DNA from: a virus
Taxonomy: Duplodnaviria; Caudoviricetes
Length of the DNA stretch: 64,000 bases
Virus record (IMG/VR): IMGVR_UViG_3300032301_000861
Coordinates: 3,744 to 67,743 of that record
Strand: one strand, 5' to 3'
Positions 32,635 to 64,000 of this stretch are shown piece after piece; the stretch's first letter is position 1, and the number at the start of each line of letters is the position of its first letter. Both the position numbers and the translations under genes were made by a program. The notes under the pieces are model-generated. The model ran no database searches. It had not been told where the DNA came from and saw only the letters and a program-made list of their open reading frames with translations.

Positions 32635-32850
32635 TTATTTGGTTTTGGGTACTCGTTTGCGTAGCCCATTCATCCAATTGAGCACACTTTGATCGATAAG
32701 CGGTTCGATCGAGTCGTCGGAATTTTTGAACCCTTCCTTCATAACATCACGAATTGCTTCTCGTAGAGCATCGTGATCTGGATGTGTAGCAATCAAGGCC
32801 TTGACCATCACACTCAATGCTACAAATTGTGCCGCACTTTTTTCGTCCAT
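32635..32850 (-). CDS. Hypothetical protein
   Basis: 71-aa co-oriented ORF. Confidence 0.6.
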   Translation of the reverse strand: MDEKSAAQFVALSVMVKALIATHPDHDALREAIRDVMKEGFKNSDDSIEPLIDQSVLNWMNGLRKRVPKTK

Positions 32851-32853
32851 TTG

Positions 32854-33547: not shown

Positions 33548-33926
33548 AATGAGTTTTAATTAATTCAGCGTACTCGCTGGCCGGGATGCCCTGATTGACC
33601 GCGTTCTTTACCACTGATACGCATTCGTCAACGGTCTCGTATTCTAGATTATGAATATCAATATAGCCTGCGACCTGGGCCTGTACATAAGATTCCATTC
33701 CAAATCCAAACACATCATAAAGTGTTCCTCGATAACTTGAATTTTTAACGAACAAGGCTTTATGAATACGACGAACCACAGCACAGAATACGGATAGCCT
33801 TTGATCCTCAGTGAGACTGTTCCAATATGCTTCCTGGTCCTGCTCAATTTCTTTCATGGCCTGATTGAACACTTCCGAAATGCTTTCTAGTGATTCAAGT
33901 AGTGATTTTTTATTTTCATTATCCAT
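33498..33926 (-). CDS. Hypothetical protein
   Basis: Co-oriented ORF abutting ligase. Confidence 0.6.
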   Translation of the reverse strand: MDNENKKSLLESLESISEVFNQAMKEIEQDQEAYWNSLTEDQRLSVFCAVVRRIHKALFVKNSSYRGTLYDVFGFGMESYVQAQVAGYIDIHNLEYETVDECVSVVKNAVNQGIPASEYAELIKTHFENKRNETRNSGNTDF

Positions 33927-49573: not shown

Positions 49574-49581
49574 AACACCTT

Positions 49582-50352
49582 TTAGCTTAAATTCATACGG
49601 CCCATAACTTTTAAGGCTATATGAATGTGATCTTGGGGCCCGGGATGACTGAGATCTCGACCTCGAATAGTTAGGTTCTGTGGATCCGTGAACAAGGGAA
49701 TGAACTGCACTTGAGGTCTTGTAAACTGCCGGGACCAAGTGCAGTGATAAACAGGTACACCACGAGATCCCCACATGATGTCCAGGGATTGGCGGTACTG
49801 ATCGGCCCAAAAATCGCCTAAATACGGATCCAGGGCCCAGCTGAGACCTAATTGTATACTGGGATCCTGAGAATCCGGGCGATCAGCATTCCAGGTACCG
49901 TGCCCCCGCGCATGAGTCATCTGAGAATCTGCTAGAGTAAACATACGTGATGTATCGGGCCAATAATAGACCACAGCACGGGGCTTGTGTCCTTCTGCTA
50001 TAACACGCAGACTGTTGACCCAGTTGTAACCCCAACCCTGCCCACCCTGTGCAAGATTGATCACAGGAATCTTGGTGAACTGAGACAATTTATAGGGCCA
50101 AGCATCAGAATCACCCACGGCAATTCCAAAGGTATTAGAACAACCAAAAGCCAATATGCTTCGGCCCCAATCTAACTCAGAGAACTCCCCACATCTAAAA
50201 CCTTGACTGTTTAAGGTGTAGGTAACTGAGTGAGTTCTCCAATACCAATCTGAGGGCTGCAGGCCGAGATTTTTTTTAAATAGTTCCTCAGTGTCAGCGG
50301 GACAGTAATGGTGTATCCCGGATAAATTGATAGATTTTAACAGACACAGCAT
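49582..50352 (-). CDS. SGNH-hydrolase-like protein
   Basis: NSQGFR, AFGCSNTFG, INLAQGG, DLSHPG. Confidence 0.6.
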   Translation of the reverse strand: MLCLLKSINLSGIHHYCPADTEELFKKNLGLQPSDWYWRTHSVTYTLNSQGFRCGEFSELDWGRSILAFGCSNTFGIAVGDSDAWPYKLSQFTKIPVINLAQGGQGWGYNWVNSLRVIAEGHKPRAVVYYWPDTSRMFTLADSQMTHARGHGTWNADRPDSQDPSIQLGLSWALDPYLGDFWADQYRQSLDIMWGSRGVPVYHCTWSRQFTRPQVQFIPLFTDPQNLTIRGRDLSHPGPQDHIHIALKVMGRMNLS

Positions 50353-51473
50353 ATAGCCTATATTTATAGATCTAGAAATTTATAGTTAAAGTTATTCCCG
50401 AATGAGCAGTGAGATTGGGCCTTAATCGATATCTTAGCTGGTGCAGCCAAATACCCCGCTGTAGGGGACTAGCAAATACAATACATAATAACATATATAC
50501 AAATACCCCGCTGTAGGGGTTTAGACAAATCACTCAATTCATACACATACAGATATCTATACACACACATACATACGTATATACAGTGTGTATGTGTGTG
50601 CGTAGAATCTTTCACTGAAAACTAGTAAGAAGAAAAGAAAATCACACTGTGGGAGAACTGGGGGAACCGCAAAGGATCAGTGGGGGAATGGTAGGAGAAC
50701 ACTGTAGAGAACCGCAAAGGATCAATGAGGGAACTGGGGATTATGGTGAAAAGTATTTTAACTAAACCCCCCACCCCCACCCTGGTCTCACGGTGAATCA
50801 CTATAGAAACGGTATCCAAACCTGTCAAATGGTGTCTAGAGTGGGGCCAAAATGGGAGAATAATAGTGATTTTTGGTCCCATTTATCAAAGTTTTAGACC
50901 ATTTTGACCCCATATATAAATAGAATTCTAAACCGAGCGCTAGTGGGAATCTAGGATCTAATCTACCGGGCACTCTAGGGCCGACGGGTTGATTCATTCT
51001 AGAGGTCATGAGGACATGGTCCCTTGAATCTACAGCTAGTCTGCGACCAACTTAGAGAGGTAAGACCGCCCGAGTAGGGGTTAACAGCGGAACGGGACTG
51101 CTAGGAATTGGTCAGCTAGAGCAGTACTACTGGGGGGCACACTGTATACACGTATACTCTGTGCCTCTTAGTTTCTCTCACAGAGCACTGTATATACATA
51201 TACAACACTATATGTATAGTATAAGCAGATTGGGATCTCACTGACCGTAATCCCACTGTATATACTCACTATACTAGTATAGGATTATAGTGGGATTACG
51301 GTCTTATTCTCACGGGATTATAGTGGTATAATATTATCTGATTATACGGGGAGTATACGGCTATAATCCCGGGTTTTAAAACTATAATATTATAGGGTTA
51401 TACGGGGTTTTAACTAGATAATATTATGTCAGTATACGGGATTATATCAGAATAATGTTATCTGATTATAAGT
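50353..51473. other. Non-coding strand-switch region rich in direct and inverted repeats (origin/terminus candidate)
   Basis: No credible ORF over 1.1 kb; 20-bp and 16-bp direct repeats, 15-bp inverted repeat, iterated TATACGGG/ATAATATTAT. Confidence 0.6.
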
Positions 51474-51518
51474 GGAGTGCCGGGGTGTTGTCAAAATACA
51501 ACACCTTTTTTGGTTGAC
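51474..51518 (+). repeat. 45-bp module GGAGTGCCGG-GGTGTTGT-N6-ACAACACC-T6-GGTTGAC, copy 1 (others 53115, 56716, 58443 partial, 60755 rearranged)
   Basis: Near-identical copies; 8-bp hairpin plus T-run fused to a -35 box. Confidence 0.9.
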
Positions 51519-51547
51519 TTTTGGGCTAGACCCTGTATAATACGAGA

Positions 51548-51892
51548 ATGGACACACAGACTACACCCCGTAAGAAGCGCAGCGACCGCAATCACATTGT
51601 GTACGAGCTAGTTATCGGCTCAGAGAACTATGTGGGAGTCACTGCTAAGACTGAAAGCACTGTGGTCAAGAGTGTGCAGAGCAGGCTCTCAAAGCACTGG
51701 TATCGTGCACAGACTGAGAGCAAGGACTGGGCCTTGTGCCGTGCTTTGAGACAGTTGACCAGTCGTGAACTAGTTGAGATCCGCATACACGAGGTCGTGC
51801 GGGGCAAGACGGCCGCACACAAGAGGGAAGTTGAGATCCGGCGTGGCGTTAAACCCACACTGAATACAGATGTTAGAGGCGATTTTGCTTGA
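51548..51892 (+). CDS. GIY-YIG nuclease family protein
   Basis: HIVY....NYVGVT, RL.KH, A...E; ATG 6 nt after TATAAT. Confidence 0.75.
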   Translation: MDTQTTPRKKRSDRNHIVYELVIGSENYVGVTAKTESTVVKSVQSRLSKHWYRAQTESKDWALCRALRQLTSRELVEIRIHEVVRGKTAAHKREVEIRRGVKPTLNTDVRGDFA

Positions 51893-51952
51893 CAAAAGTC
51901 TAGCAGTAGGCTATAATACTTGAACACTAACACAACAGAGAGAGCACACGCT

Positions 51953-52141
51953 ATGCTATACGACCTCGACACGTTCGTTAACACTAACGCTAGCACCTTT
52001 GAGGGATCGCTTGAGGAGTTCACCAGCACATTCCCTGCAGCAGACTGTGACGAGACAGCAGACCCGGTGCTAGTGTACCTGCGAGCGGGAGTGCCTGTTG
52101 CCTGGTACGACCTCGAACTTGAGTGCGGGTTTGTGGCTTAA
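51953..52141 (+). CDS. Small acidic early protein
   Basis: Own promoter and leader; start corrected from TTG call. Confidence 0.7.
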   Translation: MLYDLDTFVNTNASTFEGSLEEFTSTFPAADCDETADPVLVYLRAGVPVAWYDLELECGFVA

Positions 52142-52219
52142 ATGCCACAATCTGTGGGGTTGACAACAGCCCCACAGTTCGCTATAATACTTGAACACTA
52201 ACAGCACGGAGCACTAGAG

Positions 52220-53110
52220 ATGAAAGCAGAAATTATTTTCCAAGACGGCAATTGGATCGGTATGGCAGCAGGCAAGAAAGTGGTCAAGAGCTACGATCAA
52301 ACTCGTGTGGTCAAGATGATGCTCAAAGCGGGCTACAAGAATGTGCCCATCCGGGGTGAGGATGTTACCACAGCAGTGGAAGATGCAGAGTGCCAGTGGG
52401 ACATCAATCAGCGATTCAGTTTCCTCACTGACCTCGTTACCATGGTAGCCAAGCGTCAGGCTGTGAGTGTGGTTGTTACAGGTCCTGGAGGCCTTGGCAA
52501 GACGCATACTGTACAGGCTGCGCTCAAGGCAGCAGGTCTCAAAGATGCCAGCGACATGAACAGCTTCGGCAAAGACGGGCTGTATCGCGTGATCAAAGGC
52601 TATAGCACTGCTAAAGGCCTGTTCCGTGAACTCTACGAGAACCGTGACAGTGTGATCGTGTTTGACGACTGTGATGCTGTGCTCAAGGATCCCGTAGCAC
52701 TCAACCTGCTCAAAGGTGCTCTGGACAGTTACGACAAGCGAGTGATTTCGTGGAATGCAGACTTCCGCGACGAAGATCTCGAGCGCAGTTTCCAGTTCAC
52801 GGGGCGTGTGATCTTTATCAGCAACATCAAGCGTGAGAATCTTGATGCTGCCTTGCTGACTCGTGCCTACTGTGTTGACCTGCGTATGACTGACGCACAG
52901 AAACTGGAGCGTATGAGTGTGCTAGCAGAGAGTGAGGACTTCCTGCCGCAGTTTGACATCAAGCACAAGCGGGAAGCACTGGCTCTGATTGGGGAAGTGG
53001 GAGATCGTGCTCGTGAGATCAGCCTGCGTACACTACAGGCAGTGACTCGCATTCGTGCTGCTAACACTAAGAACTGGCGTGCGCTGGCAGAGTACACTTT
53101 GACCAACTGA
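52220..53110 (+). CDS. AAA+ ATPase, paralog 1
   Basis: Walker A GPGGLGKT, Walker B IVFDDCD, LLKGALDS. Confidence 0.9.
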   Translation: MKAEIIFQDGNWIGMAAGKKVVKSYDQTRVVKMMLKAGYKNVPIRGEDVTTAVEDAECQWDINQRFSFLTDLVTMVAKRQAVSVVVTGPGGLGKTHTVQAALKAAGLKDASDMNSFGKDGLYRVIKGYSTAKGLFRELYENRDSVIVFDDCDAVLKDPVALNLLKGALDSYDKRVISWNADFRDEDLERSFQFTGRVIFISNIKRENLDAALLTRAYCVDLRMTDAQKLERMSVLAESEDFLPQFDIKHKREALALIGEVGDRAREISLRTLQAVTRIRAANTKNWRALAEYTLTN

Positions 53111-53214
53111 GGCTGGAGTGCCGGGGTGTTGTAGAAATACAACACCTTTTTTGGTTGACAAACGCCCGAGAGTTCGCTATAATCATTGAACACTAACAGC
53201 ACGGAGCAGCAAAG

Positions 53215-53700
53215 ATGAGAAAAAATCTTGTACTCATGCGGGATGTAATTACTCGTTATCATCCGGAGTTTGTGCAAAGCCGAGATCTGTGCAGTTATGG
53301 GCTCGAGCATAGCGATATCTTCAATGTGGAGAGGCTAGTTGAAGAGTGCCTGGCTGCTGTGGGAGGATACCAGTTCGTTGATCAAGAGGGTTATGACTTC
53401 AGCGACTTCAGCGACAGTAAGACAGTCACTGTGAACGCAAAGTCGCGAAGAGCCGAGATCCACAGGGTGGAATGCAAAATCGGAGCGTTGAGGATCACCA
53501 CTTACAATCCTCACAAGAACGGTGTGGACTTCTTCTTTGTGCCCGAGCGAGATCTGGGCCGCGTCAAATCTCCCTGCTATGGCAAGAACAGCCATGGTGA
53601 GAGGATCGCGTTTACTTGGAACAACCGTTTTGATCACTACAATTGGTTCGAGAGCTACAGGCTCAACAGCTTCGCAGAGCTGGCCCGGTCTTGTGGTTGA
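53215..53700 (+). CDS. Putative PD-(D/E)XK nuclease
   Basis: E helix (VERLVEE), GYDF...SDSKT motif. Confidence 0.5.
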   Translation: MRKNLVLMRDVITRYHPEFVQSRDLCSYGLEHSDIFNVERLVEECLAAVGGYQFVDQEGYDFSDFSDSKTVTVNAKSRRAEIHRVECKIGALRITTYNPHKNGVDFFFVPERDLGRVKSPCYGKNSHGERIAFTWNNRFDHYNWFESYRLNSFAELARSCG

Positions 53701-53754
53701 CTTCTGGTTAGATCGGCTATATAATCATTGAACACTAAGCAAATGGAGCACGAG

Positions 53755-54039
53755 ATGTTGCAAGACTACACCATGTACATCTGGAAACTGGATTCTCGCT
53801 ACAAGACCGGCCGCCGTGCCGTTCAAACCTATGTTTACCGCGCCAAGCATGATCAATGGATGAGGGAAGAGGTCCGTGATCTGCAGAGTGGGCTGTACCC
53901 CAAGAGCAAGGGGTTCATCCTCGAGTTCGTGCCCACCATGCGAACTGTGAAGAACCTGATGACTGGGGAGGAAGTGCAGATCCCCTATGATACTCCTCGC
54001 TCTTGTGATCCCAGCACTGAACTCTATTGGAGCATGTAA
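53755..54039 (+). CDS. Small early protein (TP..CDPS.E.YWSM)
   Basis: Own promoter, GGAGCA RBS. Confidence 0.75.
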   Translation: MLQDYTMYIWKLDSRYKTGRRAVQTYVYRAKHDQWMREEVRDLQSGLYPKSKGFILEFVPTMRTVKNLMTGEEVQIPYDTPRSCDPSTELYWSM

Positions 54040-54040
54040 C

Positions 54041-54280
54041 ATGAATTGGATTCTACTAGCAGTGGCCACTCTGCAGCCCATTTCCGCTCACACCACGCGA
54101 GTGGGTTGTGAGTTGGAGATCAGACAGAAGATTCGGCAGGAGAACCCCATGCCCCACCACTTGACATTCGAGCAAGAAGAAGCATACAAGATTACAATCG
54201 ATGCACTATACAACGGTCAAAAATCCTACCTCTGTGTGCGAAATAAGCCACAATCTTCGGTTGACAAGCCAGTTCGATGA
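54041..54280 (+). CDS. Hypothetical protein
   Basis: GGAGCA RBS; reads through next -35. Confidence 0.55.
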   Translation: MNWILLAVATLQPISAHTTRVGCELEIRQKIRQENPMPHHLTFEQEEAYKITIDALYNGQKSYLCVRNKPQSSVDKPVR

Positions 54281-54319
54281 TTGTATAATACTTGAACACT
54301 GGGAAACAAGGAGTAGCAG

Positions 54320-54409
54320 ATGTTAACAGTTCTTGTAGTTTGGTTTGCGGTCAGTGTGCCTGTGGCTCTGCTGGTAGGCGCTGTAATCCGATTTGGCTCA
54401 GGAGAGTAA
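54320..54409 (+). CDS. 29-aa single-TM peptide (MLTVLVVWFAVSVPVALLVGAVIRFGSGE)
   Basis: Hand-translated; first ORF after promoter 54261 with GGAG RBS. Confidence 0.6.
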   Translation: MLTVLVVWFAVSVPVALLVGAVIRFGSGE

Positions 54410-54413
54410 CAGT

Positions 54414-54590
54414 ATGAAAATTGATACCATGATGGAAATTGGTGAAATTCAAGGTCTGCTCGAAGATCTCACCGAGCGAGTTTGCCGTTTGCCCATTAGC
54501 ACCGTGAAACGGCGACTGCTGGAGAGCAAACTCATGGAGATCGAGGACTTTCTGGACGAAGAGGTGCAGTTGGAAAGTACCGACTGGTAG
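54414..54590 (+). CDS. Small acidic helical protein
   Basis: GGAG RBS; start MKIDT. Confidence 0.65.
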   Translation: MKIDTMMEIGEIQGLLEDLTERVCRLPISTVKRRLLESKLMEIEDFLDEEVQLESTDW

Positions 54591-54650
54591 GTTGACACAA
54601 GGCCCAAAAGGCCTTATAATACTTGAACACTAGCAAACAAGGAGCAGCAA

Positions 54651-54983
54651 ATGAACTACACTCAAGAGCAGATCACAGCAATCGTAGCAGAAGCCCAAGT
54701 TGAAGCCCGCCGGGCAGCAGAAGCATTCCACGCCCAGTATGGCGATCGTGATTGCTGTGGCTTTGCGTGGACCAACATCTACGGCATCAAAGGCAACACC
54801 AAGGTGGGCAAGATGCTCAAGGCTGCTGGTGTGCGGCAGGATTACACCAAGGCCTTCCAGATCTGGAATCCTTCAAAGTTCCCCACGCAGAGCATGAACA
54901 TTCTGGAAGCGGGTGCACAGGCCGCAGCGGAAGTGTTCCGCAAGTACGGCTTCGACAGCCTTGCTGGCAGCAGGATGGACTGA
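54651..54983 (+). CDS. Small early protein (CGFAW family)
   Basis: Own promoter, GGAGCA RBS. Confidence 0.8.
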   Translation: MNYTQEQITAIVAEAQVEARRAAEAFHAQYGDRDCCGFAWTNIYGIKGNTKVGKMLKAAGVRQDYTKAFQIWNPSKFPTQSMNILEAGAQAAAEVFRKYGFDSLAGSRMD

Positions 54984-55094
54984 TCCACAAGGGGTGTGGC
55001 ATATACACCACACCCCAGGCTCTCCACTCAAGTGGTTGACAGATGCCCAAGAGTTCGCTATAATACTTGAACACTAACAGCAAGGAGCAGCAAG

Positions 55095-55313
55095 ATGCAG
55101 TGGAACTTGGAAGGCTTGAGAGTTTGGGGACACTACCTGGACATGTTCCCGGTCAGCGGAGAGGTTGTGCTGAGCCGTGTGTGCTACGGTGGCGGGGTGC
55201 AGCATACCGTGGTGCTGGAGCAGCCCTTGACGGTGTTTGGTCGGGTGCGCGAAGCGGGCGAGCGGGTCTTGCTGGACCATAAGGATGTGGTTCGTGTAAA
55301 GGATGCGGTATGA
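55095..55313 (+). CDS. Small early protein
   Basis: Own promoter, GGAGCA RBS. Confidence 0.75.
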   Translation: MQWNLEGLRVWGHYLDMFPVSGEVVLSRVCYGGGVQHTVVLEQPLTVFGRVREAGERVLLDHKDVVRVKDAV

Positions 55314-55489
55314 ACTGGGCTAGAGTTTTGTTTTACCGACGGGACCTCTTTACAGTATGCAGAGTGGGCTTTATGGCTAACCGCATTGATCCACTGTGGT
55401 GTGAAGGGTGGATCTTGGAGGATCGCCTGGATCAGTTGACGCACAAGAACATTTGGTTCACTACAGATCTAGACGGGGTCAAACAATGA
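55310..55489 (+). CDS. 59-aa protein (MNWARVLFYRR...), not in ORF track
   Basis: ATGA overlaps at both ends. Confidence 0.6.
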   Translation: MNWARVLFYRRDLFTVCRVGFMANRIDPLWCEGWILEDRLDQLTHKNIWFTTDLDGVKQ

Positions 55490-55680
55490 TTGATGAGTAC
55501 ACTCCCACTGCTGCTGTTCGTTGGTGGTTCCGCAATGGTCACCAATGGTATCAGGCCTTTGACAGTCAGGCCGAACGGAACCATTGGATCAACCGTGTGG
55601 GCTTGGTCTCGCATCCGGACATTGTACGGGTTACCGTCTACGATGGTGACTTCGATCGGGATCTCAAACGACTCGGTTGA
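55486..55680 (+). CDS. Small early protein (MIDEYTP...)
   Basis: ATGA overlap; stop inside next -35. Confidence 0.65.
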   Translation: MIDEYTPTAAVRWWFRNGHQWYQAFDSQAERNHWINRVGLVSHPDIVRVTVYDGDFDRDLKRLG

Positions 55681-55732
55681 CAAGGCAGGGGCTTGGCAGT
55701 ACAATACTTGAACACTAGCAAGGAGCACGACT

Positions 55733-55957
55733 ATGAGCAGACGTATTGAGTACCGTGTGGATTTGGATGAGCGCGGTGAATTCCGTGCTACAGTCTACGA
55801 TGGCGACACTGTATTGGCCGAAGTTGACACCGAGGATATGATGTTTATGATAGAGAACATGGGGGTCCGTGATCCTCGTGATCACCATGGGTTGAGGGAT
55901 TATTTCCGCCTTGCTGGAGTGTTGGATTCTAGCGACACCTTCGAAGTCTGCGGTTGA
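55733..55957 (+). CDS. Small early protein
   Basis: Own promoter, GGAGCA RBS. Confidence 0.75.
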   Translation: MSRRIEYRVDLDERGEFRATVYDGDTVLAEVDTEDMMFMIENMGVRDPRDHHGLRDYFRLAGVLDSSDTFEVCG

Positions 55958-55973
55958 CCGGGAGGATTAAACA

Positions 55974-56144
55974 ATGGAATACCTCAAAAGAGCAGAACTC
56001 TACTGTGCGGCCAGAGGTGATGAACTTTGGTTCAAGAACCTGTACACGGGATTCCGGCAATACAATACTGTCTCTGACAGTGTATGGAAAACCTTGAGTT
56101 ACCTGTACAGCAACGAAACCGCTGATCTGCTGGAGAGCCAATAA
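55974..56144 (+). CDS. 56-aa protein (MEYLKRAELYC...), not in ORF track
   Basis: GGAGG RBS; fills gap to next promoter. Confidence 0.6.
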   Translation: MEYLKRAELYCAARGDELWFKNLYTGFRQYNTVSDSVWKTLSYLYSNETADLLESQ

Positions 56145-56208
56145 ACCGGTTGACAAGGCAGGGGCTCGGTGCTAAAATACACTTACACTGAAACACAAGG
56201 AGCAGCAA

Positions 56209-56352
56209 ATGGAAACTTTTGATGATATCCAGTGCGAAGAGTACTACGCCGCATTCGGCACCGAGCAAGAGCAGTTTGAGCAGTGGATGCAGTCCTTGGA
56301 GGCAGCAGAGATTGACAATGTCAACGCTGAACTCAGGTGCATTACTGGTTGA
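56209..56352 (+). CDS. 47-aa acidic protein (METFDDIQCEEY...), not in ORF track
   Basis: Own promoter, GGAGCA RBS, stop inside next -35. Confidence 0.7.
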   Translation: METFDDIQCEEYYAAFGTEQEQFEQWMQSLEAAEIDNVNAELRCITG

Positions 56353-56407
56353 CAACGCCCGAAAGGGCTGCTATAATACTTGAACACTAACGCAACGGAG
56401 CACGGAA

Positions 56408-56713
56408 ATGAGCTACCCCAATATGAGTTACTGCATGTGCGAAAACACTCTGCTGGCTCTGCAGCAGATCATTAACGCCATGAACATGGAAGGCACGGAC
56501 TTTATCCGTGACCTGAGCCGTAGTGAGCAGCGTGCGTTTGGTGAACTGCTCAACGCCTGCGAGGACTTTAGGGCGGTTGCAGAGGAACTGCAGGACGAAG
56601 CGGATCGTGAAGAAGAGTACGAGGACGATATGGACGGCGATCATGCCAGTGCTTTGGCATCAGCAGGCCTGGGCACTGATGAGGACTATGGTGCCTGTGA
56701 CGAGCGGTTCTAA
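56408..56713 (+). CDS. Acidic early protein (NMSYC..ENT family)
   Basis: Own promoter, GGAGCA RBS. Confidence 0.8.
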   Translation: MSYPNMSYCMCENTLLALQQIINAMNMEGTDFIRDLSRSEQRAFGELLNACEDFRAVAEELQDEADREEEYEDDMDGDHASALASAGLGTDEDYGACDERF

Positions 56714-56813
56714 TTGGAGTGCCGGGGTGTTGTAGAAATACAACACCTTTTTTGGTTGACAGGCCCTCCAGACTCCGCTATAATACTTGAACACTAACGC
56801 AATGGAGCAGCAA

Positions 56814-57071
56814 ATGATTTCAGCAAAACAGCAAGACCGTTTCGATCGCGAAGCACAGCAGCGCGAGTTCTTTGTTCGTTCATTGAACCAAATGATGGAG
56901 GCACAGCGTGAAAACTACAATGGTTACGCTTATAGTGCCGGTTGGCTGCAGAGTATGTTGACTCAGGTTTGGATGCAATTGCCCAAGGCAAAGCGCGAGC
57001 GGGTGCTGGAAGATGTGAAGGAGCAGACCATCAAGCAGTTGAAAGAAGTGGTTGACAAGGCTCGGGTTTGA
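56814..57071 (+). CDS. Small early protein
   Basis: Own promoter; start corrected to MISAK. Confidence 0.75.
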   Translation: MISAKQQDRFDREAQQREFFVRSLNQMMEAQRENYNGYAYSAGWLQSMLTQVWMQLPKAKRERVLEDVKEQTIKQLKEVVDKARV

Positions 57072-57109
57072 CAGTATAATCATTGAACACTAACAGCAAG
57101 GAGCACTAG

Positions 57110-57310
57110 ATGACTAACATCGAACTGGCAAAAGGCATCAAGCACGGTATGTTCGCTAGCCGCCCTACCGTTGAGGAGGCTTGGGACTATGTGGATCACA
57201 TTGCCCGCTCCTGCGGCAAGGACAACCGTGCGGCAGTGATCACTGCGGTACAGGTCATGCTCAACACCGTGGCAGAGCAGATGTTGCGTAACGAACACAC
57301 CGAAGTCTAA
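57110..57310 (+). CDS. Small early protein
   Basis: Own promoter, GGAGCA RBS. Confidence 0.75.
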   Translation: MTNIELAKGIKHGMFASRPTVEEAWDYVDHIARSCGKDNRAAVITAVQVMLNTVAEQMLRNEHTEV

Positions 57311-57376
57311 GAGGTTGACGCAGCCCTTCGGGGCTGCTATAATACTTGAACACTAACAGCACACGGAGCAGTCAAG

Positions 57377-57532
57377 ATGCAGCGTTATAAAATCACAATG
57401 GTTCTGGAACTAGACGAAGAAGCGAACCATCCCCGCAAGTGGCTTGCGGAAACCATCTACGACGCACTGCGTGATGGTGAGGATCTCGTTGAGATTCAGT
57501 ACGAAGAAGTAGTTGACACAGAGTCAGTTTGA
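57377..57532 (+). CDS. 51-aa acidic protein (MQRYKITMVLEL...), not in ORF track
   Basis: Own promoter, GGAGCA RBS. Confidence 0.7.
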   Translation: MQRYKITMVLELDEEANHPRKWLAETIYDALRDGEDLVEIQYEEVVDTESV

Positions 57533-57570
57533 CAATATAATACTTGAACACTAGAGCAATGGAGCAAGTG

Positions 57571-57846
57571 ATGCGAGTAAAAACGATCGACCCATACGAT
57601 ACCCGTGCGTACACCTGCGCGGTGCTGGAACTTGTTGACGAAGGTATGCTGGACAAGGACACACTGATCGCAGACTTGCTCAGTTGGATGAGCGAGTTCG
57701 AAGTTGAGCAGTTCTGCCAGAAGAACTTGCGGGACGATGACACCAACGAGTGCCTGATTGGGCCCGAGCAGGCGGATGAGGAAGAGGACAGTGACGAAGC
57801 AGCACTGAATGACTTTAACTATGTGGGTTCACGTCACCACTATTGA
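57571..57846 (+). CDS. Acidic early protein
   Basis: Own promoter; start corrected to MRVKT. Confidence 0.75.
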   Translation: MRVKTIDPYDTRAYTCAVLELVDEGMLDKDTLIADLLSWMSEFEVEQFCQKNLRDDDTNECLIGPEQADEEEDSDEAALNDFNYVGSRHHY

Positions 57847-57857
57847 TCGGAGAGCAT

Positions 57858-58040
57858 ATGATCCCGGAATTTATTCATAAGATCGACTGGGCTCTGTTAC
57901 GCAAACAGAAACGGTGGCTGCTGCATCAATCGGTTCTGGATTGTGCCGAAGCAGAGGGGCTACTGGCCCTAGTGGTTGCGATACAGGACTATGCAGTTGA
58001 TGAGATGTTTATTGATGAAACCTCTGTTTTTGGAGAATGA
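57858..58040 (+). CDS. Small protein
   Basis: GGAG RBS; start MIPEF. Confidence 0.6.
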   Translation: MIPEFIHKIDWALLRKQKRWLLHQSVLDCAEAEGLLALVVAIQDYAVDEMFIDETSVFGE

Positions 58041-58041
58041 T

Positions 58042-58206
58042 ATGAAAGATTGGTTCAATACTCGTTACAGTGCACAAGAGCTGCGTGAGATCGTTGCAGA
58101 CCATCCTGCTTGGATTTATCGTGAAGTGCCTGAGAATATGGGCCGTTGTAAGTTGGCCGCAGAGTTGGAGCGGTTGGATCAAGAACTAGAGGAGCAGGCC
58201 CTGTGA
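58042..58206 (+). CDS. Small protein
   Basis: GGAG RBS; start MKDWF. Confidence 0.6.
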   Translation: MKDWFNTRYSAQELREIVADHPAWIYREVPENMGRCKLAAELERLDQELEEQAL

Positions 58207-58442
58207 GGATTCCGTCGGGTCCTGTAGACAAGGCTCTTAAATGGACCGCCACTGTGATCTTGATTGTGGGGTCGCTGATCAACGGTTTAGGCTATTATCC
58301 TTGGGGTCCATTAATCCTCACAGCAGGCGGAGCCATTTGGCTCATAGTGGCCTGTCGGTGGCGTGAACCCAGTATGATCGTGACCAATGCTGTTATGTTT
58401 GTGGCAGGCGCAGGCGGGCTGTTATTCAATCTTATTAAGTGA
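58203..58442 (+). CDS. Small integral membrane protein (about three TM helices)
   Basis: Hydrophobic segments; GTGA overlap. Confidence 0.7.
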   Translation: MRIPSGPVDKALKWTATVILIVGSLINGLGYYPWGPLILTAGGAIWLIVACRWREPSMIVTNAVMFVAGAGGLLFNLIK

Positions 58443-58538
58443 AGTGCCGGGGTGTTGTCAAAATACAACAGAGATTTTGGTTGACAAGACAGAACAGATC
58501 CGCTATAATACTTGAACACTAACAGCACGGAGAACAAG

Positions 58539-58760
58539 ATGACAGACTTTCAAGACCGCGACAACGACAACTTAGACTTCCTGCTCAGTCTAGATCAAGC
58601 AGGCCTGGTTGTTTGGTTCATGCAGGCCTCAGCCGATGACGTTGCTTATGCTATGGAACTGATGACTAGGCACAGCGAGGAGTTGGCTATTGAGCGGACT
58701 CTTAACACCACGGAGTGGATTGAATCCAATGTGGTGCTGGAACGTTTTCGTTTACACTAA
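58539..58760 (+). CDS. Small acidic early protein
   Basis: Own promoter; start corrected to MTDFQ. Confidence 0.7.
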   Translation: MTDFQDRDNDNLDFLLSLDQAGLVVWFMQASADDVAYAMELMTRHSEELAIERTLNTTEWIESNVVLERFRLH

Positions 58761-58787
58761 TTCACACTAACAGCAAGGAGCAACTAA

Positions 58788-59222
58788 ATGGGAACTCGTA
58801 GCGCAATCGGTATGCAGTTTGGTGACATCATCAAAGCAGTCTACTGCCACTGGGATGGATATCCTGAAAACAATGGTCGTATCTTGATCGAGAACTATAC
58901 CGCCAGGACCAAGACAGCACATCTGATCAGCCTGGGCAATCTTTCCGTTCTGGGGCCTATGGTAGAGCCCGATCCGGAATTCCCGCATACCAAGCATCAA
59001 CCCCAACGAGATGTTTGTGTGTTCAAAGGTCGAGATTACGACGAGCCGGGCAATGAGTATCAGGTATTTGACTGTTCTGAAGAGTACAGGTGTGAGTTTG
59101 GGTCAGATGTAGAATACTTGTACCTGCTGACCACTGATGGTAACTGGTTGGTATGCGACAGCCGGAGCATCGATGGTCGTTGGCAACTGTTGGCTGATGT
59201 GCTAGAACAAGAAGAGGCCTAA
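58788..59222 (+). CDS. Conserved protein of unknown function (MGTRS.IG...YCHWDGYP family)
   Basis: Motif; preceded by the array leader without a promoter. Confidence 0.8.
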   Translation: MGTRSAIGMQFGDIIKAVYCHWDGYPENNGRILIENYTARTKTAHLISLGNLSVLGPMVEPDPEFPHTKHQPQRDVCVFKGRDYDEPGNEYQVFDCSEEYRCEFGSDVEYLYLLTTDGNWLVCDSRSIDGRWQLLADVLEQEEA

Positions 59223-59223
59223 T

Positions 59224-59430
59224 ATGAACAAGATCGAAAAGAAGATACTATCCGCACTAGAAGATCAAGACATCCTAGATGTATACTTTGATTCCGGGAG
59301 ACTGATCTATATGAACGATTGGGACGAGAGTGCCGTTCGAAAGATTGTTCAAGACCAATTCCCCCAATTTGATCCCTCAAATATTATCTATGATGAGGAG
59401 CCGGAATACTTTGGAAAAATTGGTTACTAA
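59224..59430 (+). CDS. Hypothetical protein
   Basis: GAGG RBS. Confidence 0.65.
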   Translation: MNKIEKKILSALEDQDILDVYFDSGRLIYMNDWDESAVRKIVQDQFPQFDPSNIIYDEEPEYFGKIGY

Positions 59431-59524
59431 AAACGGTTGACCATTCGAACAGAATACTGTATAATATTATTAATGCGAGATAATTCGCAGTCACACACAA
59501 CACACACACAGAAAGGATTTAATT

Positions 59525-59929
59525 ATGTCACAGTTTACATATGCAGGTGTTTCCAAACACAAAGGTGAGTTCAAAGTTCGATTTGCCAATGATCAGATGC
59601 GGGTCAAAGTTCTAGCCAAGAACGATCATACTGATATCGATATCATTGCTCTTCCGGACGCAATGACCAAAGAGGCCGCTGTAGTCTACCTAACCCAGAT
59701 CGCATTCTGGGACAAGGGCGGTGTAGTTAACGCTGAAGTCCGTGCTGCTATCGAAGCAGAGCAGACCAAACGTGAACCCAAGGCTGCTAGCAAGGACAAG
59801 CCCAAGAAAGAGGCCAAGAAGCCCAAGAAAGAAGTTCCCGCCAAGGCGATCACGCTGGACGCTATCAAGGCCAAAGCACCCAAGGTTGCCAAGCCCAATC
59901 TAGAAGATCTAGAAGAGGCTCCGTTCTAA
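59525..59929 (+). CDS. Putative DNA-binding protein with K/A/P-rich histone-like tail
   Basis: KAASKDKPKKEAKKPKKEVPAK tail; (CA)n enhancer-like leader and AGGA RBS. Confidence 0.6.
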   Translation: MSQFTYAGVSKHKGEFKVRFANDQMRVKVLAKNDHTDIDIIALPDAMTKEAAVVYLTQIAFWDKGGVVNAEVRAAIEAEQTKREPKAASKDKPKKEAKKPKKEVPAKAITLDAIKAKAPKVAKPNLEDLEEAPF

Positions 59930-60010
59930 ATCTAAGTACCCCCGAGACCGAGACTTGTAAATAATCTAGTCTCGGTACTACTTCGGGGTATTTAGAAATG
60001 GGTAAGGACG

Positions 60011-60334
60011 ATGGGAAAATTGACTATACTGACTAGATCATCTGTAAGGTTTGATCCCCGGGATCCAACTCATAGGTTATACTATTATCAGTACATACGA
60101 ACAAATAGACAGGGCGAATGTCCTGTAAGATTTACCACAGTTCAGGATGATCAGGGCAATATGGTAGAGAAGGTACGCAGAATGCTCTGCGATTACTATA
60201 CTGGCCTTGAGTTTCAGATGCATCAAGAACGAGATCCAAATTCTTTTACAGTTCGAGAAGAAAGGATCATCGCAGCAGAAATTCCGGATGAAATTCCTAC
60301 ACTGACAGATACAATTGGTGAAACTGAGGGTTGA
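60011..60334 (+). CDS. Hypothetical protein
   Basis: AAGGA RBS. Confidence 0.6.
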   Translation: MGKLTILTRSSVRFDPRDPTHRLYYYQYIRTNRQGECPVRFTTVQDDQGNMVEKVRRMLCDYYTGLEFQMHQERDPNSFTVREERIIAAEIPDEIPTLTDTIGETEG

Positions 60335-60405
60335 TTAACTGTGTTAATGTGTGTAATATTATTAGACACTGCACAGCGCAGTTAAAGAACAAAAAGGAAA
60401 ACAAA

Positions 60406-60648
60406 ATGAGTTTCACGCAAATTAAAACTACACAGAAAGAGTTTCTAGAAGATTATCTACGCGGTACAGGTCGCAGCCTATCAGGTGCCCAGGCCCGTGC
60501 TACATTTGGTATCATGAACCTCCGTGCTCGAGTATCAGAACTGCGTAAAGCAGGGCTCCGCGTTCGTCGTGAGCGTAACACGGAAGGCCGCAGCACCTAC
60601 GCAATCAGTGCTCGCGATGTTACCGGTAGCCGCAGCAACCTATTCTGA
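60406..60648 (+). CDS. Winged helix-turn-helix protein
   Basis: YL..TG.SLS..QA...FGI.NL.ARVSELR..G..V pattern. Confidence 0.7.
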   Translation: MSFTQIKTTQKEFLEDYLRGTGRSLSGAQARATFGIMNLRARVSELRKAGLRVRRERNTEGRSTYAISARDVTGSRSNLF

Positions 60649-60835
60649 GTAGAACCAGTCGCTCCGAAGTCCGGGGGTAGTGTCCCGGCAAACTGGAAGG
60701 GTCCCGCTGGGAAGCGTCGACCCTTCCGCCTTCTTCCACCGTTGCTCATCTGCCACAACCCCGGCACTGCCACCGTTGTACAAATATAACACCTTTTTTG
60801 GTTGACCAAAATCCTAGTTCCTGTATAATACGAAT

Positions 60836-61207
60836 ATGGACAACACGGAGCACAAGATGGATTACACCTTCGACAACGATACGGTTTCCGATCTGCACAA
60901 AGATGCCTACGGTTTCCGCCCCAGCGAACTGTTCTGGGAAGAGTGGATCGGGGCTACGGATGCTGAGCGGCAGGCCATCTGGGACAGTCTGGAGCGGGCC
61001 TTGGAGGTCAGCATGGAGATCGAGCGGGAGAACGAGCAGCGGGCCATTGACAGGTTCGAGGCCCTGGTCCGGGTGAACATTGACGCAGGTGCAGAGGACC
61101 GTGAGACCGCACTGCGCTGGATCATGGATGCCAGCCGTGCCAATGGTGACTGGGAGTACCTGTGCTGGGAGTACAGTCTGCCATATCGTTACTTTGAGCG
61201 GGGTTGA
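60836..61207 (+). CDS. Early protein (SDLHKDAYGFRP family)
   Basis: Own promoter; start 60836 or 60857; stop inside next -35. Confidence 0.8.
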   Translation: MDNTEHKMDYTFDNDTVSDLHKDAYGFRPSELFWEEWIGATDAERQAIWDSLERALEVSMEIERENEQRAIDRFEALVRVNIDAGAEDRETALRWIMDASRANGDWEYLCWEYSLPYRYFERG

Positions 61208-61255
61208 CAGGTAAATAGTGTGATAGTACAATGTACACACTTAGGAGAACACGCG

Positions 61256-61564
61256 ATGAAGAAGATTGCACTTGCCCTTGCTCTTACTGCTAGCCTAGTT
61301 GGCCATGCTCACGCTCACGGTGGCTATCGTGGTGCGCCAGTTTGGGGTGCTGTGGCAGCAGGTGCGATCCTCGGTGCTGCCATTGCCGGTGCCCCAGTAT
61401 ATGCTGCTCCTCCCGTGTATGTTGCTCCACAACCAGTTTATCCTCAAGCAGTATATCCCCAAACTCAAGGTTGCCCATATGGCACCTACCCGTCCTATAC
61501 TGCCGTGACTACCTATGATGCCTACGGAAGAGCATATAGCCAATATCAATTGACCTGCCGATAA
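61256..61564 (+). CDS. Exported/membrane Pro-Tyr-rich protein
   Basis: Signal peptide MKKIALALAL..., glycine-zipper segment, PVY repeats. Confidence 0.7.
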   Translation: MKKIALALALTASLVGHAHAHGGYRGAPVWGAVAAGAILGAAIAGAPVYAAPPVYVAPQPVYPQAVYPQTQGCPYGTYPSYTAVTTYDAYGRAYSQYQLTCR

Positions 61565-61585
61565 ACTATTAATTTTATACACAAT

Positions 61586-61662
61586 ACCACCGTGGTCTAA
61601 TTGAATAAGGCAACGCTCTTCTAAAGCGTACGATGTGAGTTTGAATCTCGCCGGTGGTACCA
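61586..61662 (+). tRNA. tRNA-Arg(UCU) with encoded CCA
   Basis: ACCACCG/CGGTGGT acceptor, ACGCT-CTTCTAA-AGCGT anticodon arm, GTGAG-TTTGAAT-CTCGC T arm. Confidence 0.9.
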
Positions 61663-61714
61663 ATTCTATTCATAGGTATAAATACTTCTAACAACCACTT
61701 AGAAGTTAGAACTT

Positions 61715-62401
61715 ATGAATTATACCAAAATATACGATCGACTTATACTACGAGCACAATCTAGACTTCAAAGTAAAGGCGAGTATTATGAAAAACATCA
61801 TATTATACCTCGATGCCTCAGTGGCACAGACGAGAAAGAAAATCTCGTCTCTCTTACCGCTAGAGAACATTTTATAGCACACCTTTGTCTTGTTAAGATT
61901 CATCCAGGTAACGGCTCATTAGTTAGAGCCGCTATGATGATGGCTTGTGAAAGCACTAATCAGAATCGCTCTGCTAATCGAGTATACGAATGGTTAAGAA
62001 TAAAGCACTCAAAAGCAATGAGTCAATCACAGACCGGAAAAGGAAATAGCCAGTTCGGAACAAGTTGGATTTTTAACCAAACGACCAATACTAATAAGAA
62101 AGTCCCAAATGACCAAATATCAAATTATTTGGAATCAGGATGGATTAAAGGAAGAGATGTAAAGTTCTATACCTGTGCGGTTTGTTTAAAATCTTTTAGT
62201 CATCATTTTAAAAAGAACACCTGTAGCAGTAAATGTTCTAAAATAGACAAACGACCGTTTCAAGTATTTGAAGGTAGAGAGCAAGAATTCTTAGATCATT
62301 ATCAAAATCTTAAAAGTATGAACAAGGCGTTACAGGCTATGGGATTCAAAGGAGCAATAAGTCACTACTACAAGTGGGCTAGATCAGTGCTTGACAAGTA
62401 G
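61715..62401 (+). mobile_element. Free-standing HNH homing endonuclease (T4 Mob/SegD-like) next to tRNA
   Basis: EKHHIIPRCL.G.D...NLV.LTAREHFIAH; NUMOD-like GKGNSQFG; AT-rich; TATAAATA at 61677. Confidence 0.8.
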
Positions 62402-62453
62402 ATAATTTTTTGTTATAATCATCAAAACTTAAACTAGAAAGGAAATAAAGAAA

Positions 62454-62600
62454 GTGCCTAAAATTCCAACTCATCAGATCCTCGATGACGAATGGGATGA
62501 GCCTAGAACCAAACAAGGCGTCAAACGCCTGCCCAAGCAGGACAAAGAATGGGAAGACCAACGCCGCGATGCTTGGCGTAAGAAGAACCGACAAGACTAA
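62454..62600 (+). CDS. 48-aa charged peptide (MPKIPTHQILDD...), not in ORF track
   Basis: GTG start after AAGGA, follows promoter 62391. Confidence 0.55.
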   Translation: MPKIPTHQILDDEWDEPRTKQGVKRLPKQDKEWEDQRRDAWRKKNRQD

Positions 62601-62622
62601 CACACACTGAGAGAGTATACAC

Positions 62623-62769
62623 ATGAACAAACCAGGAACTCAACAACCATCCAGCACCGGCGGCACTATTACCTATACCAAGACCGGACTGGTACACACA
62701 GCGGGCAAACATTTCAGTGGATCCACCGCCGAAGCAGATAAACCAAAAACTCCTAAAAAGAAAGGTTGA
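62623..62769 (+). CDS. 48-aa peptide (MNKPGTQ...TYTKTGLVH.A...PKKKG), not in ORF track
   Basis: GAGAG RBS; stop inside next -35. Confidence 0.55.
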   Translation: MNKPGTQQPSSTGGTITYTKTGLVHTAGKHFSGSTAEADKPKTPKKKG

Positions 62770-62830
62770 CTTTAGGCAGTCTTGATCGTATAATACACAG
62801 ACACTTAAATAATATTGAAAGGAAACAGAT

Positions 62831-63694
62831 ATGGCCCGTCCAGCAAAGAGTTCAGCAAGTGTAACCGTACTTGAGTTTGATACCGAAGCGATCAAACGCC
62901 GTGAACAAGAAGTGGCTCGTGAATCCGATGAGCAGATTCTTGAGCGACTGGCAGAACGGTTTGACATCCTAGACCACATGACCAAGGCTGTTAAGAGCGG
63001 TACCGTGCGTGCTATGATTGTATCAGGTCCCCCGGGTGTGGGCAAGAGTTTTGGTGTTGAGCGTGTGCTGGAGCGTGATGGTCTACTGGATCAGATCGCA
63101 GAACGCAAACCCAAATATGAAATTGTCAAGGGTGCTATGAGTGCCATTGGTCTATACAAGAAACTCTATGAGTTCAGTGCCAAAGGCAATGTTGTGGTGT
63201 TTGATGACTGCGACAGTATTCTTATGGAAGACCTGGCCCTGAACATTCTCAAAGGTGCCCTGGACAGCAGCAAAAAGCGATTTATCAGTTGGAACACGGA
63301 CAGCAGGATTCTGCGATCAGAAGGTATTCCAGATCGCTTTGAATTCAAGGGTGCTGCAATCTTTATTACCAATATCAAGTTTGAGCATGTTCGATCAAAG
63401 AAACTGAAAGATCACTTGGATGCACTAGAAAGCCGCTGCCACTACATTGATCTGCAGATGGACACACAGCGAGAAAAGATTCTCCGTATCAAACAGATTA
63501 TCAGCACTGGGATGCTGGACGAATACGAGTTTGAAGACTGTGTTAAAGATGAATTGGTTGACTTTATCGATCAGAACAAAGATCAACTGCGTGAATTGAG
63601 TCTGCGTATGGTACTCAAGATTGCAGATCTACGTAAGAGTTTTCCAACCAAATGGCAGTCAATGGTACGCACAACCTGTATGCGGCGTGTATGA
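62831..63694 (+). CDS. AAA+ ATPase, paralog 2
   Basis: GPPGVGKS, VVFDDCD, ILKGALDS, F.F.G..IFITN. Confidence 0.9.
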   Translation: MARPAKSSASVTVLEFDTEAIKRREQEVARESDEQILERLAERFDILDHMTKAVKSGTVRAMIVSGPPGVGKSFGVERVLERDGLLDQIAERKPKYEIVKGAMSAIGLYKKLYEFSAKGNVVVFDDCDSILMEDLALNILKGALDSSKKRFISWNTDSRILRSEGIPDRFEFKGAAIFITNIKFEHVRSKKLKDHLDALESRCHYIDLQMDTQREKILRIKQIISTGMLDEYEFEDCVKDELVDFIDQNKDQLRELSLRMVLKIADLRKSFPTKWQSMVRTTCMRRV

Positions 63695-63933
63695 ACCAGA
63701 GATATATTCAAACAGGTCTAGCCCTGATTCTTATGGTAGCGGTACTGTCCCTGTTGGGAGCCGACCTAGACAGCCCGCATTCCTGGGCTGTTTGGTCTAT
63801 CCTAGCCCTAGCAGTGGTTCTAGAGTATTTGGCCTACATCCAAGGTATCAATCGGGGCATTGAAATGTACCTAACTCTTACACCAGAACAACAGCAAGAA
63901 ATCAATCGAATTATTCGGGACAACGAAGAATGA
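63691..63933 (+). CDS. Small two-TM membrane protein
   Basis: ATGA overlap; hydrophobic segments. Confidence 0.65.
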   Translation: MNQRYIQTGLALILMVAVLSLLGADLDSPHSWAVWSILALAVVLEYLAYIQGINRGIEMYLTLTPEQQQEINRIIRDNEE

Positions 63934-64000
63934 GTACCTGCGAGTGGAGAAGCGGCTGTGATCATCCAGCCCTAGAAGGCAAGAGTTACTGTGAAGAACA
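63930..64000 (+). CDS. Partial ORF with C..C...YC.EH zinc-finger-like start
   Basis: MSTCEWRSGCDHPALEGKSYCEE, truncated by window end. Confidence 0.5.
   Translation, partial: MSTCEWRSGCDHPALEGKSYCEE

Follow-up and report, generated by a model that had tools for sequence, protein, structure and literature searches.

Does a promoter that is repeated every few hundred bases in front of small, unrelated phage genes serve only their expression, or is it also the place at which those genes are exchanged? We addressed this question in a 64,000-nt stretch of a viral metagenome record (IMG/VR IMGVR_UViG_3300032301_000861, positions 3,744 to 67,743), called the window here and used for all coordinates. 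Our preferred reading, to which we assign a probability of about 0.75, is that the locus is an early-gene ("hyperplastic") region in which homologous recombination between units of the promoter-early stem-loop (PeSL) type reshuffles gene cassettes.

The carrier phage and its relatives

The window represents part of the genome of an uncultured myovirus (contractile-tailed phage), probably of the jumbo type. Its core proteins are closest, at 36–55% amino acid identity, to those of the isolates PA5oct (Arenbergviridae) and Atu_ph07, and not to those of Straboviridae; terminase and sheath place PA5oct as the nearest cultured relative. Almost all comparison sequences were metagenome contigs of uncultured phages. 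One of these, L004, is 100% identical to the window and continues the array for ~4.4 kb beyond the window end; L002 is 87–96% identical, and G001, a 90–98% relative, encodes a UvsX-like recombinase, a T4-type terminase and a tail sheath. Searching 50,697 phage records by megablast with the array as query returned no match. CheckV completeness values of related records (14%, 20% and 55%) are mutually inconsistent, leaving the genome size uncertain. In lake- and freshwater-labelled sequencing runs, just 5–13% of words were present, and we assign no habitat. Matches to the T4 late box TATAAATA number 8 across the window, with 4.4 ± 2.1 expected; this is no enrichment, and we do not claim T4-type late promoters.

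A unidirectional array of consensus promoters and small genes

The array occupies 51514..62830 on the + strand (~11 kb), with all genes in one direction. Promoter-like sites number 56 in 49000–64000, versus 19.3 ± 5.8 in shuffles. The + strand of the full 67.7-kb record has 23 sites scoring at least 11/12, and 22 of them fall within window positions 51514–62794; the - strand holds four such sites in its entire length. Thirteen of the 22 are perfect 12/12 matches; the consensus applied is that of E. coli sigma70. One site, at 55824, is intragenic and doubtful, and setting it aside gives the 21 sigma70 promoters counted in an earlier, sequence-only reading of this DNA. Promoters are spaced 198–1365 nt apart (median ~425 nt), a density of about one unit per 0.5 kb. 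The main features, all on the + strand, are as follows.

51482..51513 (+): terminator hairpin and T6, joined to the next promoter (repeat family D6; -14.3 kcal/mol)
51514..51547 (+): promoter 11/12, 16-nt spacer; ATG 6 nt past the -10 box
51548..51892 (+): first gene, 114 aa, GIY-YIG-like nuclease fold; heads the array in relatives too; its stop is a TGA within the next -35 box
51889..51952 (+): promoter 12/12 and leader
52160..52219 (+): promoter 12/12 and leader, hairpin upstream
52220..53110 (+): AAA ATPase gene, 296 aa, paralogue of 62831-63694
53123..53154 (+): terminator hairpin and T6; 47 identical nt in common with the copy at 56715
53155..53214 (+): promoter 12/12 and leader
53215..53700 (+): 161-aa ORFan cassette; an unrelated gene stands in its place in L002
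53697..53754 (+): promoter 11/12 and leader; spacer holds the right breakpoint (53714) of the L002 replacement
54261..54319 (+): promoter 12/12 and leader variant
54592..54650 (+): promoter 12/12 and leader, hairpin between -35 and -10
55036..55094 (+): promoter 12/12 and leader, 9-bp hairpin upstream
55677..55732 (+): promoter 11/12 and leader; two-gene insertion here in L002
56150..56208 (+): promoter 11/12 and variant leader
56349..56407 (+): promoter 12/12 and leader
56724..56755 (+): terminator hairpin and T6; in L002 an inserted 1035-nt TctC gene lies just 5'
56756..56813 (+): promoter 12/12 and leader
57052..57109 (+): promoter 12/12 and leader
57315..57376 (+): promoter 11/12 and leader, 7-bp hairpin between -35 and -10
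57513..57570 (+): promoter 12/12 and leader
58449..58480 (+): terminator hairpin, decayed copy (-8.2 kcal/mol, z -0.8)
58481..58538 (+): promoter 12/12 and leader
58764..58790 (+): leader copy without promoter, preceding gene 58788-59222
59437..59524 (+): promoter 11/12, different, longer leader with conserved 5' hairpin
60775..60801 (+): decayed terminator copy, T6 tract
60802..60835 (+): promoter 11/12, type as at 51514 (D11)
61204..61255 (+): promoter 11/12; G001 has three extra cassettes exactly at the -35 box
61565..62582 (+): insertion with HNH homing endonuclease gene (61715-62401), missing in G001 and in runs X2-X4
62391..62419 (+): promoter 12/12, unrelated leader
62766..62830 (+): promoter 11/12, preceding the second AAA ATPase gene (62831-63694)

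The array holds 34 ORFs with a median of 79 aa; they are small, as the sequence-only reading had it, over a slightly wider range (29–296 aa) than the 30–160 aa given there for unrelated ORFs. By coding criteria, they are real genes: substitutions relative to L002 fall 102/86/295 at codon positions 1/2/3, and every frame is kept. Nearly all are ORFans, and the two AAA ATPases are the single paralogous pair. An assignment was possible for these two, for the GIY-YIG-like nuclease and for the HNH homing endonuclease of the insertion; a Pfam search of the ORFans at loose thresholds gave sub-threshold noise alone, and a profile search with the first gene yielded no useful match among PDB sequences. 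Third-position divergence varies from 4% to 36% among cassettes (chi-square p = 3e-8), which fits a mosaic ancestry.

The repeated promoter-leader unit

Boxes and leader are 82% identical among units, compared with 32%, approximately random, for the 17-nt spacers. There are exactly 14 copies of the leader core TTGAACACTA, each directly 3' of a -10 box, from 51920 to 58521, bearing out the claim of a common leader after 14 promoters; allowing up to one mismatch, there are 24 matches versus 6.5 ± 2.7 expected. A leader lacking its promoter, previously placed at 58761–58787, was indeed found at 58764–58790, following the stop of gene 58539–58760, and its orthologue in L001 has a full promoter. 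GGAG stands 6–9 nt upstream of the ATG in nearly all units, and the leader is predicted to form a short, CA-rich 5' UTR that is less structured than shuffles. At the 51514 promoter, the position of the ATG so close to the -10 box points to a probably leaderless mRNA. In the tract 5' of the -35 box, AT content averages 0.56 versus 0.51 for the array, and ~7 of the 21 units are clearly AT-rich (T6 tract).

Perfect stems of at least 5 bp are present in 16 of 26 units, versus 6.4 ± 2.2 in shuffles, at three positions (upstream of the promoter, over a box or between the boxes), and the hairpin sequences vary from unit to unit. We also predict intrinsic terminators, three strong (predicted folds of -14 to -17 kcal/mol) and two decayed, each fused to the next promoter, and these divide the array into blocks. 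Two terminator copies, at 53123 and 56715, share the longest exact repeat in the array, 47 nt. An 18-mer scan of genome contigs returned four single matches and no arrays, which we took as chance.

Among genomes, the motif past the -10 box differs (ACTTGAAC versus TGTTCTAC), and such variants might mark co-evolution with a phage factor acting on early transcripts. Leader distances are smaller within than between genomes (6.07 versus 6.57 of 14 nt; 0 of 500 permutations reach this value); the effect is small and comes mainly from L044, and we do not regard it as establishing gene conversion.

Cassette turnover at promoter units

We identified 18 structural events (indels or replacements) in seven close contig pairs. 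The window and L002 were compared by identity windows and direct reading of junctions, which replaced a global MAFFT alignment that had forced unrelated segments together. Promoter units, which make up 18–23% of the sequence, contain 23 of the 36 endpoints (binomial p about 1e-6), and 11 of the 18 events have both ends in units. In another five, every end lies outside units, indicating that other mechanisms act too; loss of gene 55310–55489, for example, runs from ATGA to ATGA outside units.

Homology of 8–41 nt was present at seven junctions. In five three-way alignments, we found hybrid units whose 5' side matches the left copy and whose 3' side matches the right copy, with crossovers in the -35 box, the -10 box or the leader; the left breakpoint of one replacement, at 57356, lies within the leader of unit 57315..57376. 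Population data from one study (runs X3 and X4) give cassette 53215–53700 a depth of 1.2–1.6 between flanks at 30–35, and an X2 contig joins 61209 to 56791 via a promoter. Order varies as well: L001 carries genes 56369, 55973 and 54755 in reversed order, and in L037 gene 54615 is placed after gene 59501. Three independent contigs (L033, L044 and L045) display one arrangement at 99.7–99.97% identity. A joint in X4 that goes back 65 nt (55097>55033) could reflect a tandem unit or the contig of a relative, and it was left out of the evidence. Relatives thus display the gain, loss and reordering of cassettes that the sequence-only reading proposed, and replacement in addition; the outcome it had named as contrary, a fixed order with breakpoints unrelated to repeats, is not what we found.

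A model for expression and exchange

In the proposed mechanism, host sigma70 RNA polymerase would start at the ~21 predicted consensus promoters, each driving one to four small ORFan genes through a short unstructured leader with a GGAG ribosome-binding site (RBS). The -35 box and the -10-plus-leader block provide ~30–47 nt of near-identity in direct repeats every few hundred bases, and since such repeats recur, homologous recombination between units could delete, insert, replace or move cassettes. Each exchange would always leave a working promoter and RBS, and often a stop codon, and a UvsX-like recombinase, as encoded in the genome of a close relative, could drive it. The two roles earlier proposed for the promoter-leader repeat, expression unit and recombination handle, are both supported, the second by hybrid junctions that lie within units; we infer promoter activity itself, early timing and the recombination enzyme. 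Anti-host or anti-defence functions of the cassettes, nearly all of them ORFans, and titration of host RNA polymerase, which the same reading suggested, would be further possibilities.

Nearly all intergenic space consists of units, and selection for intact genes alone would therefore place breakpoints there too. Only junction homology separates recombination between units from such selection. This matters for the view that the repeats are expression signals only, alike by selection, with illegitimate recombination generating the events and all other outcomes being lethal. Conservation limited to boxes and leader (82%) with random spacers (32%), retention of the leader in lineages with genes of only 65–80% identity, and events at junctions without a promoter would all suit that view. 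At illegitimate joins, however, homology is normally 0–5 nt, and units are left partial or duplicated; the seven junctions with 8–41 nt and the five clean two-unit hybrids, set beside a single partial or duplicated remnant, make it unlikely.

Shuffling could also be an artefact of assemblers joining co-occurring strains at common repeats. Logan contigs of the source run do end exactly at repeats, and all the relatives are uncultured contigs, but the longest exact repeat, 47 nt, is shorter than usual reads. Moreover, k-mer depth shows that 53215–53700 and the HNH insert are truly absent from other samples, evidence that is independent of contig joins and so eases the concern over chimeras. The agreement among L033, L044 and L045 (99.7–99.97%), the 100% match of L004 to the window, and the reordering of distant relatives in which all genes are similarly diverged add to this, and we judge an artefact quite improbable. 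Least credible of all is a true site-specific, integron-like system with a dedicated recombinase recognizing the hairpin or leader. Hairpin-bearing repeats that flank unrelated small genes and are more conserved than those genes would be expected of it, yet the array ORFs and the larger window ORFs yielded no integrase or other site-specific recombinase, crossovers are scattered over the -35 box, -10 box and leader with no one site, and hairpin sequences are unlike between units.

Relation to known systems

Units matching those of the array, and the concept of recombination between them, are already known as PeSLs, which the sequence-only reading did not mention; they are the basis of a modular-shuffling model for T4-type phages described in RB49/phi1, T4/PST and KVP40/nt-1 (Arbiol et al. 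2010, PMC2839356; Comeau et al. 2014, PMC4122927). In both, a consensus sigma70 promoter has a stem-loop upstream of, over or between its boxes, a Shine-Dalgarno sequence and ATG lie at the 3' end of the unit, and units precede ORFans in a plastic region. Ends of indels and replacements fall within units in close relatives, consistent with homologous recombination, and UvsX-type recombination is common to PeSL phages and the clade carrying the array (in the latter, as the recombinase gene of G001). By contrast, PeSL carriers are classical T4-like phages, whereas the core of the array carrier is nearest PA5oct and Atu_ph07. The array also differs in packing its units in one unidirectional run, in a 14-nt motif directly past the -10 box (predicted to be transcribed) that is as conserved as the boxes, and in the AT-rich upstream tract of PeSLs, which is clear in only ~7 of its 21 units. 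Excised mini-circles that carry one chimeric unit, and promoter and terminator activity in vivo, belong to the PeSL description; for the array, both activities are predicted from sequence.

The host-takeover and pre-early clusters of SPO1 and T5 consist of many small early genes with strong host-type promoters and RBSs and have a known role in host shut-off. The array resembles them as a small-gene cluster with a strong host-type promoter and RBS for each gene or nearly each; recombination at promoters is not known as a feature of those clusters, whereas cassette turnover is documented for the array. With integrons, the array shares unrelated small cassettes, hairpin-bearing repeats, and content and order that vary among relatives. 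It is not an integron: integrons have attI/attC sites and a single Pc promoter, whereas here there is a promoter per cassette or small operon, crossover points scatter across the repeat, the pattern of homologous recombination, and no match to an IntI integrase was found among the array and larger window ORFs searched. The integron-like platform of the sequence-only reading therefore holds as analogy only, with no integrase among the ORFs searched, no attC, and cassettes that carry their own promoters.

PA5oct relies on host RNA polymerase, and its mapped starts have TTGAC / TATAATA promoters, with no common leader or cassette array reported (Lood et al. 2020, PMC7318152). It has 11 perfect 12/12 promoters over 287 kb, compared with 13 in the 11 kb of the array.

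Implications

Such arrays break up short-read assemblies. Their units are predicted to be compact, portable promoter-UTR-terminator parts, and the ~35 expressed-looking ORFans are sensible candidates for host-takeover and counter-defence screens. More tentatively, the promoter-leader unit, nearly identical across lineages whose genes have fallen to 65–80% identity, may be a clade-wide universal adaptor through which ORFan cassettes pass between diverged co-infecting phages, possibly as packaged mini-circles; this is conceivable, though doubtful, and if true would make the array an integrase-free shared gene pool. Here, natural population variants document the shuffling, through hybrid promoter junctions and the presence or absence of cassettes across samples, and add an uncultured jumbo-related clade to the cultured T4-like phages in which PeSL-type cassette shuffling was known.

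A repeated promoter-leader unit in the array

Scanning 49000-64000 against the E. coli sigma70 consensus, which may not be that of the host, gave 56 promoter-like sites, compared with 19.3 ± 5.8 in shuffled sequences. Plus-strand sites matching at 11 or 12 of the 12 positions number 23 in the full 67,743-nt record; 22 of them fall within window 51514-62794, and 13 of these 22 predicted array promoters are perfect (TTGACA-N17-TATAAT). One site, at 55824, lies within a gene and is doubtful as a promoter, so the figure of 21 sigma70 promoters from the sequence-only reading stands. That reading had also placed a common leader behind 14 promoters and described one leader without a promoter; we found the leader core, TTGAACACTA, exactly 14 times, each immediately 3' of a -10 box, and the promoterless copy at 58764-58790.

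The unit is bipartite: identity between units is 82% over the boxes and the 23 nt past the -10 box, and 32%, approximately random, over the spacers between the boxes. Leaders have less structure than shuffled sequences, and perfect stems of at least 5 bp occur in 16 of 26 units, compared with 6.4 ± 2.2 in shuffles. Terminators were found at the following positions.

51482, 53123, 56724: three copies of a terminator hairpin with T6 tract (-14 to -17 kcal/mol)
58449, 60775: decayed terminator copies, each fused to the following promoter

GG (GGTTGACA) precedes nearly all -35 boxes and A follows all -10 boxes (window 51400-62900), extending the promoter consensus beyond the two hexamers. In 10 of 26 window units, an upstream open frame of at least 45 codons ends at the TGA within the -35 box (TTGACA); counting 51889-62769 and related loci, such stops occur in about a third of units (3-10 in each relative), so a crossover 3' of the -35 box would always restore a stop. 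The promoter at 59437 has a different leader (59466-59524), with a 5' hairpin (stem TGCGA/TCGCA), a CA-repeat tract and an RBS; the hairpin is retained in the related locus L001, where both sides have changed (TGCGG/CCGCA). A 1.1-kb non-coding, repeat-rich stretch (50353-51473; families D8, D10 and D12) separates the leftward genes from the array, and a perfect minus-strand promoter (51494-51465) is formed partly from the terminator hairpin.

Array genes

The array holds 34 called ORFs with a median of 79 aa. All reading frames are retained relative to L002, an 87-96% relative, and substitutions at codon positions 1, 2 and 3 number 102, 86 and 295, a combination indicating real genes under purifying selection. 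PHROGs and Pfam searches of these ORFs returned almost no matches beyond a few exceptions.

51548-51892: first array gene, 114 aa, GIY-YIG-like motif and fold
52220-53110 and 62831-63694: two paralogous AAA ATPases
61715-62401: HNH homing endonuclease (phrog_655)

The ATPases are the only paralogous pair among the array ORFs, so the repeats are not a by-product of tandem gene duplication. The best fold matches of the first gene are I-TevI, UvrC-N and T4 EndoII, with weak E-values and TM of 0.55-0.67. This gene begins 6 nt past its -10 box (51514-51892), its mRNA is probably leaderless, and it also heads the array in L002, L026 and L041. The HNH gene and its flanks (61565-62582) are present in this variant only; the close-relative contig G001 has 85 nt there, and sequencing runs X2-X4 show zero depth over the insert and a joint 61564>62583. 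Within the insert, at 61677, is a TATAAATA box.

Rearrangements between relatives

Searching with an 18-nt word across the -10 box and leader start, we found 4 viral and 41 metagenome loci, about 25 of them with same-strand promoter arrays. L002 is collinear with the window except for five large events.

53215-53700: gene replaced; homology stops at the ATG that follows the leader, restarting in the next promoter's spacer
57377-57532: gene replaced; break within the leader, homology back immediately 5' of the -35 box that follows
55677 promoter: two genes inserted behind it, with a leftover -35 box at the far junction
56724 terminator repeat: 1035-nt AT-rich TctC-family gene inserted exactly between it and a stop codon
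55310-55489: gene lost between two ATGA overlaps, away from repeats

The TctC insert (L002:9537-10573, between window 56713 and 56718) encodes a 315-aa TctC/Bug-family periplasmic receptor (Pfam PF03401, E = 2e-23) without its own promoter; the gene appears to come from a host and may give a clue to the host group.

Seven close pairs yielded 18 structural events, with both ends in units in 11 and a junction overlap of 8-41 nt in 7. The sequence-only reading had called for comparing cassette content and order in relatives; these proved not to be fixed, with hybrid junctions and 23 of 36 event endpoints within units, which make up 18-23% of the sequence (binomial p about 1e-6). Intergenic space is almost all units, so breakpoint location alone cannot separate repeat recombination from selection for intact genes; junction homology is the evidence that discriminates between them. 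In five three-way alignments, a single unit matches the left copy 5' and the right copy 3', with the crossover in the -35 box, -10 box or leader. Read from these alignments, such hybrids are the footprint expected of homologous recombination between direct repeats. The main technical risk is that chimeric metagenome joins at repeats produce apparent rearrangements, most compared sequences being metagenome contigs, but no exact repeat exceeds 47 nt, depth evidence is independent of contig joins, and one arrangement is common to three independent contigs.

Four runs of a single study (X1-X4) supplied contigs that were placed on the array region. Cassette 53215-53700 has a depth of 1.2-1.6 in X3 and X4, compared with 30-35 in its flanks, and an X2 contig links 61209 (-35 box) to 56791 (leader) via a different spacer and -10 box, so that the 60857 gene is followed by the 56814 cassette. 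Relatives at 65-80% nucleotide identity carry common genes in changed order: in L001 the 56369, 55973 and 54755 genes run in the order opposite to the window's, and in L037 the 54615 gene follows the 59501 gene. Third-position divergence from L002 varies by cassette, between 4% and 36% (chi-square p = 3e-8), as would be expected of cassettes with different histories. Within gene 58788-59222, a 187-nt segment (58864-59052) is swapped for 184 unrelated letters in X3 and X4, and L002 is only ~65% identical over it, the pattern of a mosaic within a gene.

Carrier phage

The window covers 3744-67743 of one 67.7-kb virus record, itself a fragment; L004, 100% identical, extends 5.6 kb beyond the window end with 4 further promoters. 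G001 (71.6 kb, a 90-98% relative) begins within the array and past it carries, on the minus strand:

T4-type large terminase, 55% amino acid identity to PA5oct
986-aa tail sheath, 36% to PA5oct and 46% to Atu_ph07
DnaB-type helicase
UvsX-like recombinase

Judging by this gene set, the carrier is a contractile-tailed phage, uncultured, with jumbo phages as its closest cultured relatives; CheckV estimates bearing on its size disagree. In G001 (L050:9822-16291), a block matching window 28582-33936 comes directly after the predicted early array; either the two close relatives differ by a large-scale rearrangement, or the block exists as a second copy. PA5oct depends on host RNA polymerase and uses TTGAC/TATAATA promoters (PMC7318152). 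Its 287 kb contain just 11 perfect promoters, so a density like that of the array characterizes this clade.

Relation to known cassette systems

In promoter-early stem-loop cassettes (PeSLs), described in PMC2839356 (Arbiol et al. 2010) and PMC4122927 (Comeau et al. 2014), an early promoter of sigma70 consensus carries a stem-loop that may lie upstream of the boxes, over them or between them, and a Shine-Dalgarno sequence and ATG close the unit on its 3' side. PeSLs precede ORFans in hyperplastic regions, where recombination between them yields indels, replacements and mini-circles (PMC2839356, PMC4122927). Stems in the array occupy the same three positions, and every sequence-level PeSL feature is found here except a general AT-rich tract upstream, which is clear in about 7 of 21 units. 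The "integron-like" label, by contrast, holds as an analogy only, as no integrase turned up among the array ORFs or the larger window ORFs, there are no attC sites, and the cassettes carry their own promoters. The proposal that the repeat is both expression unit and recombination handle is borne out in substance, but not as a novelty, PeSLs having already been described. Judged by sequence, the array is best read as PeSL-type cassettes of early genes, borne by a new clade of uncultured phages. PeSL-type promoters are already known from T4-type phages; what is new here is the uncultured phage clade bearing them.
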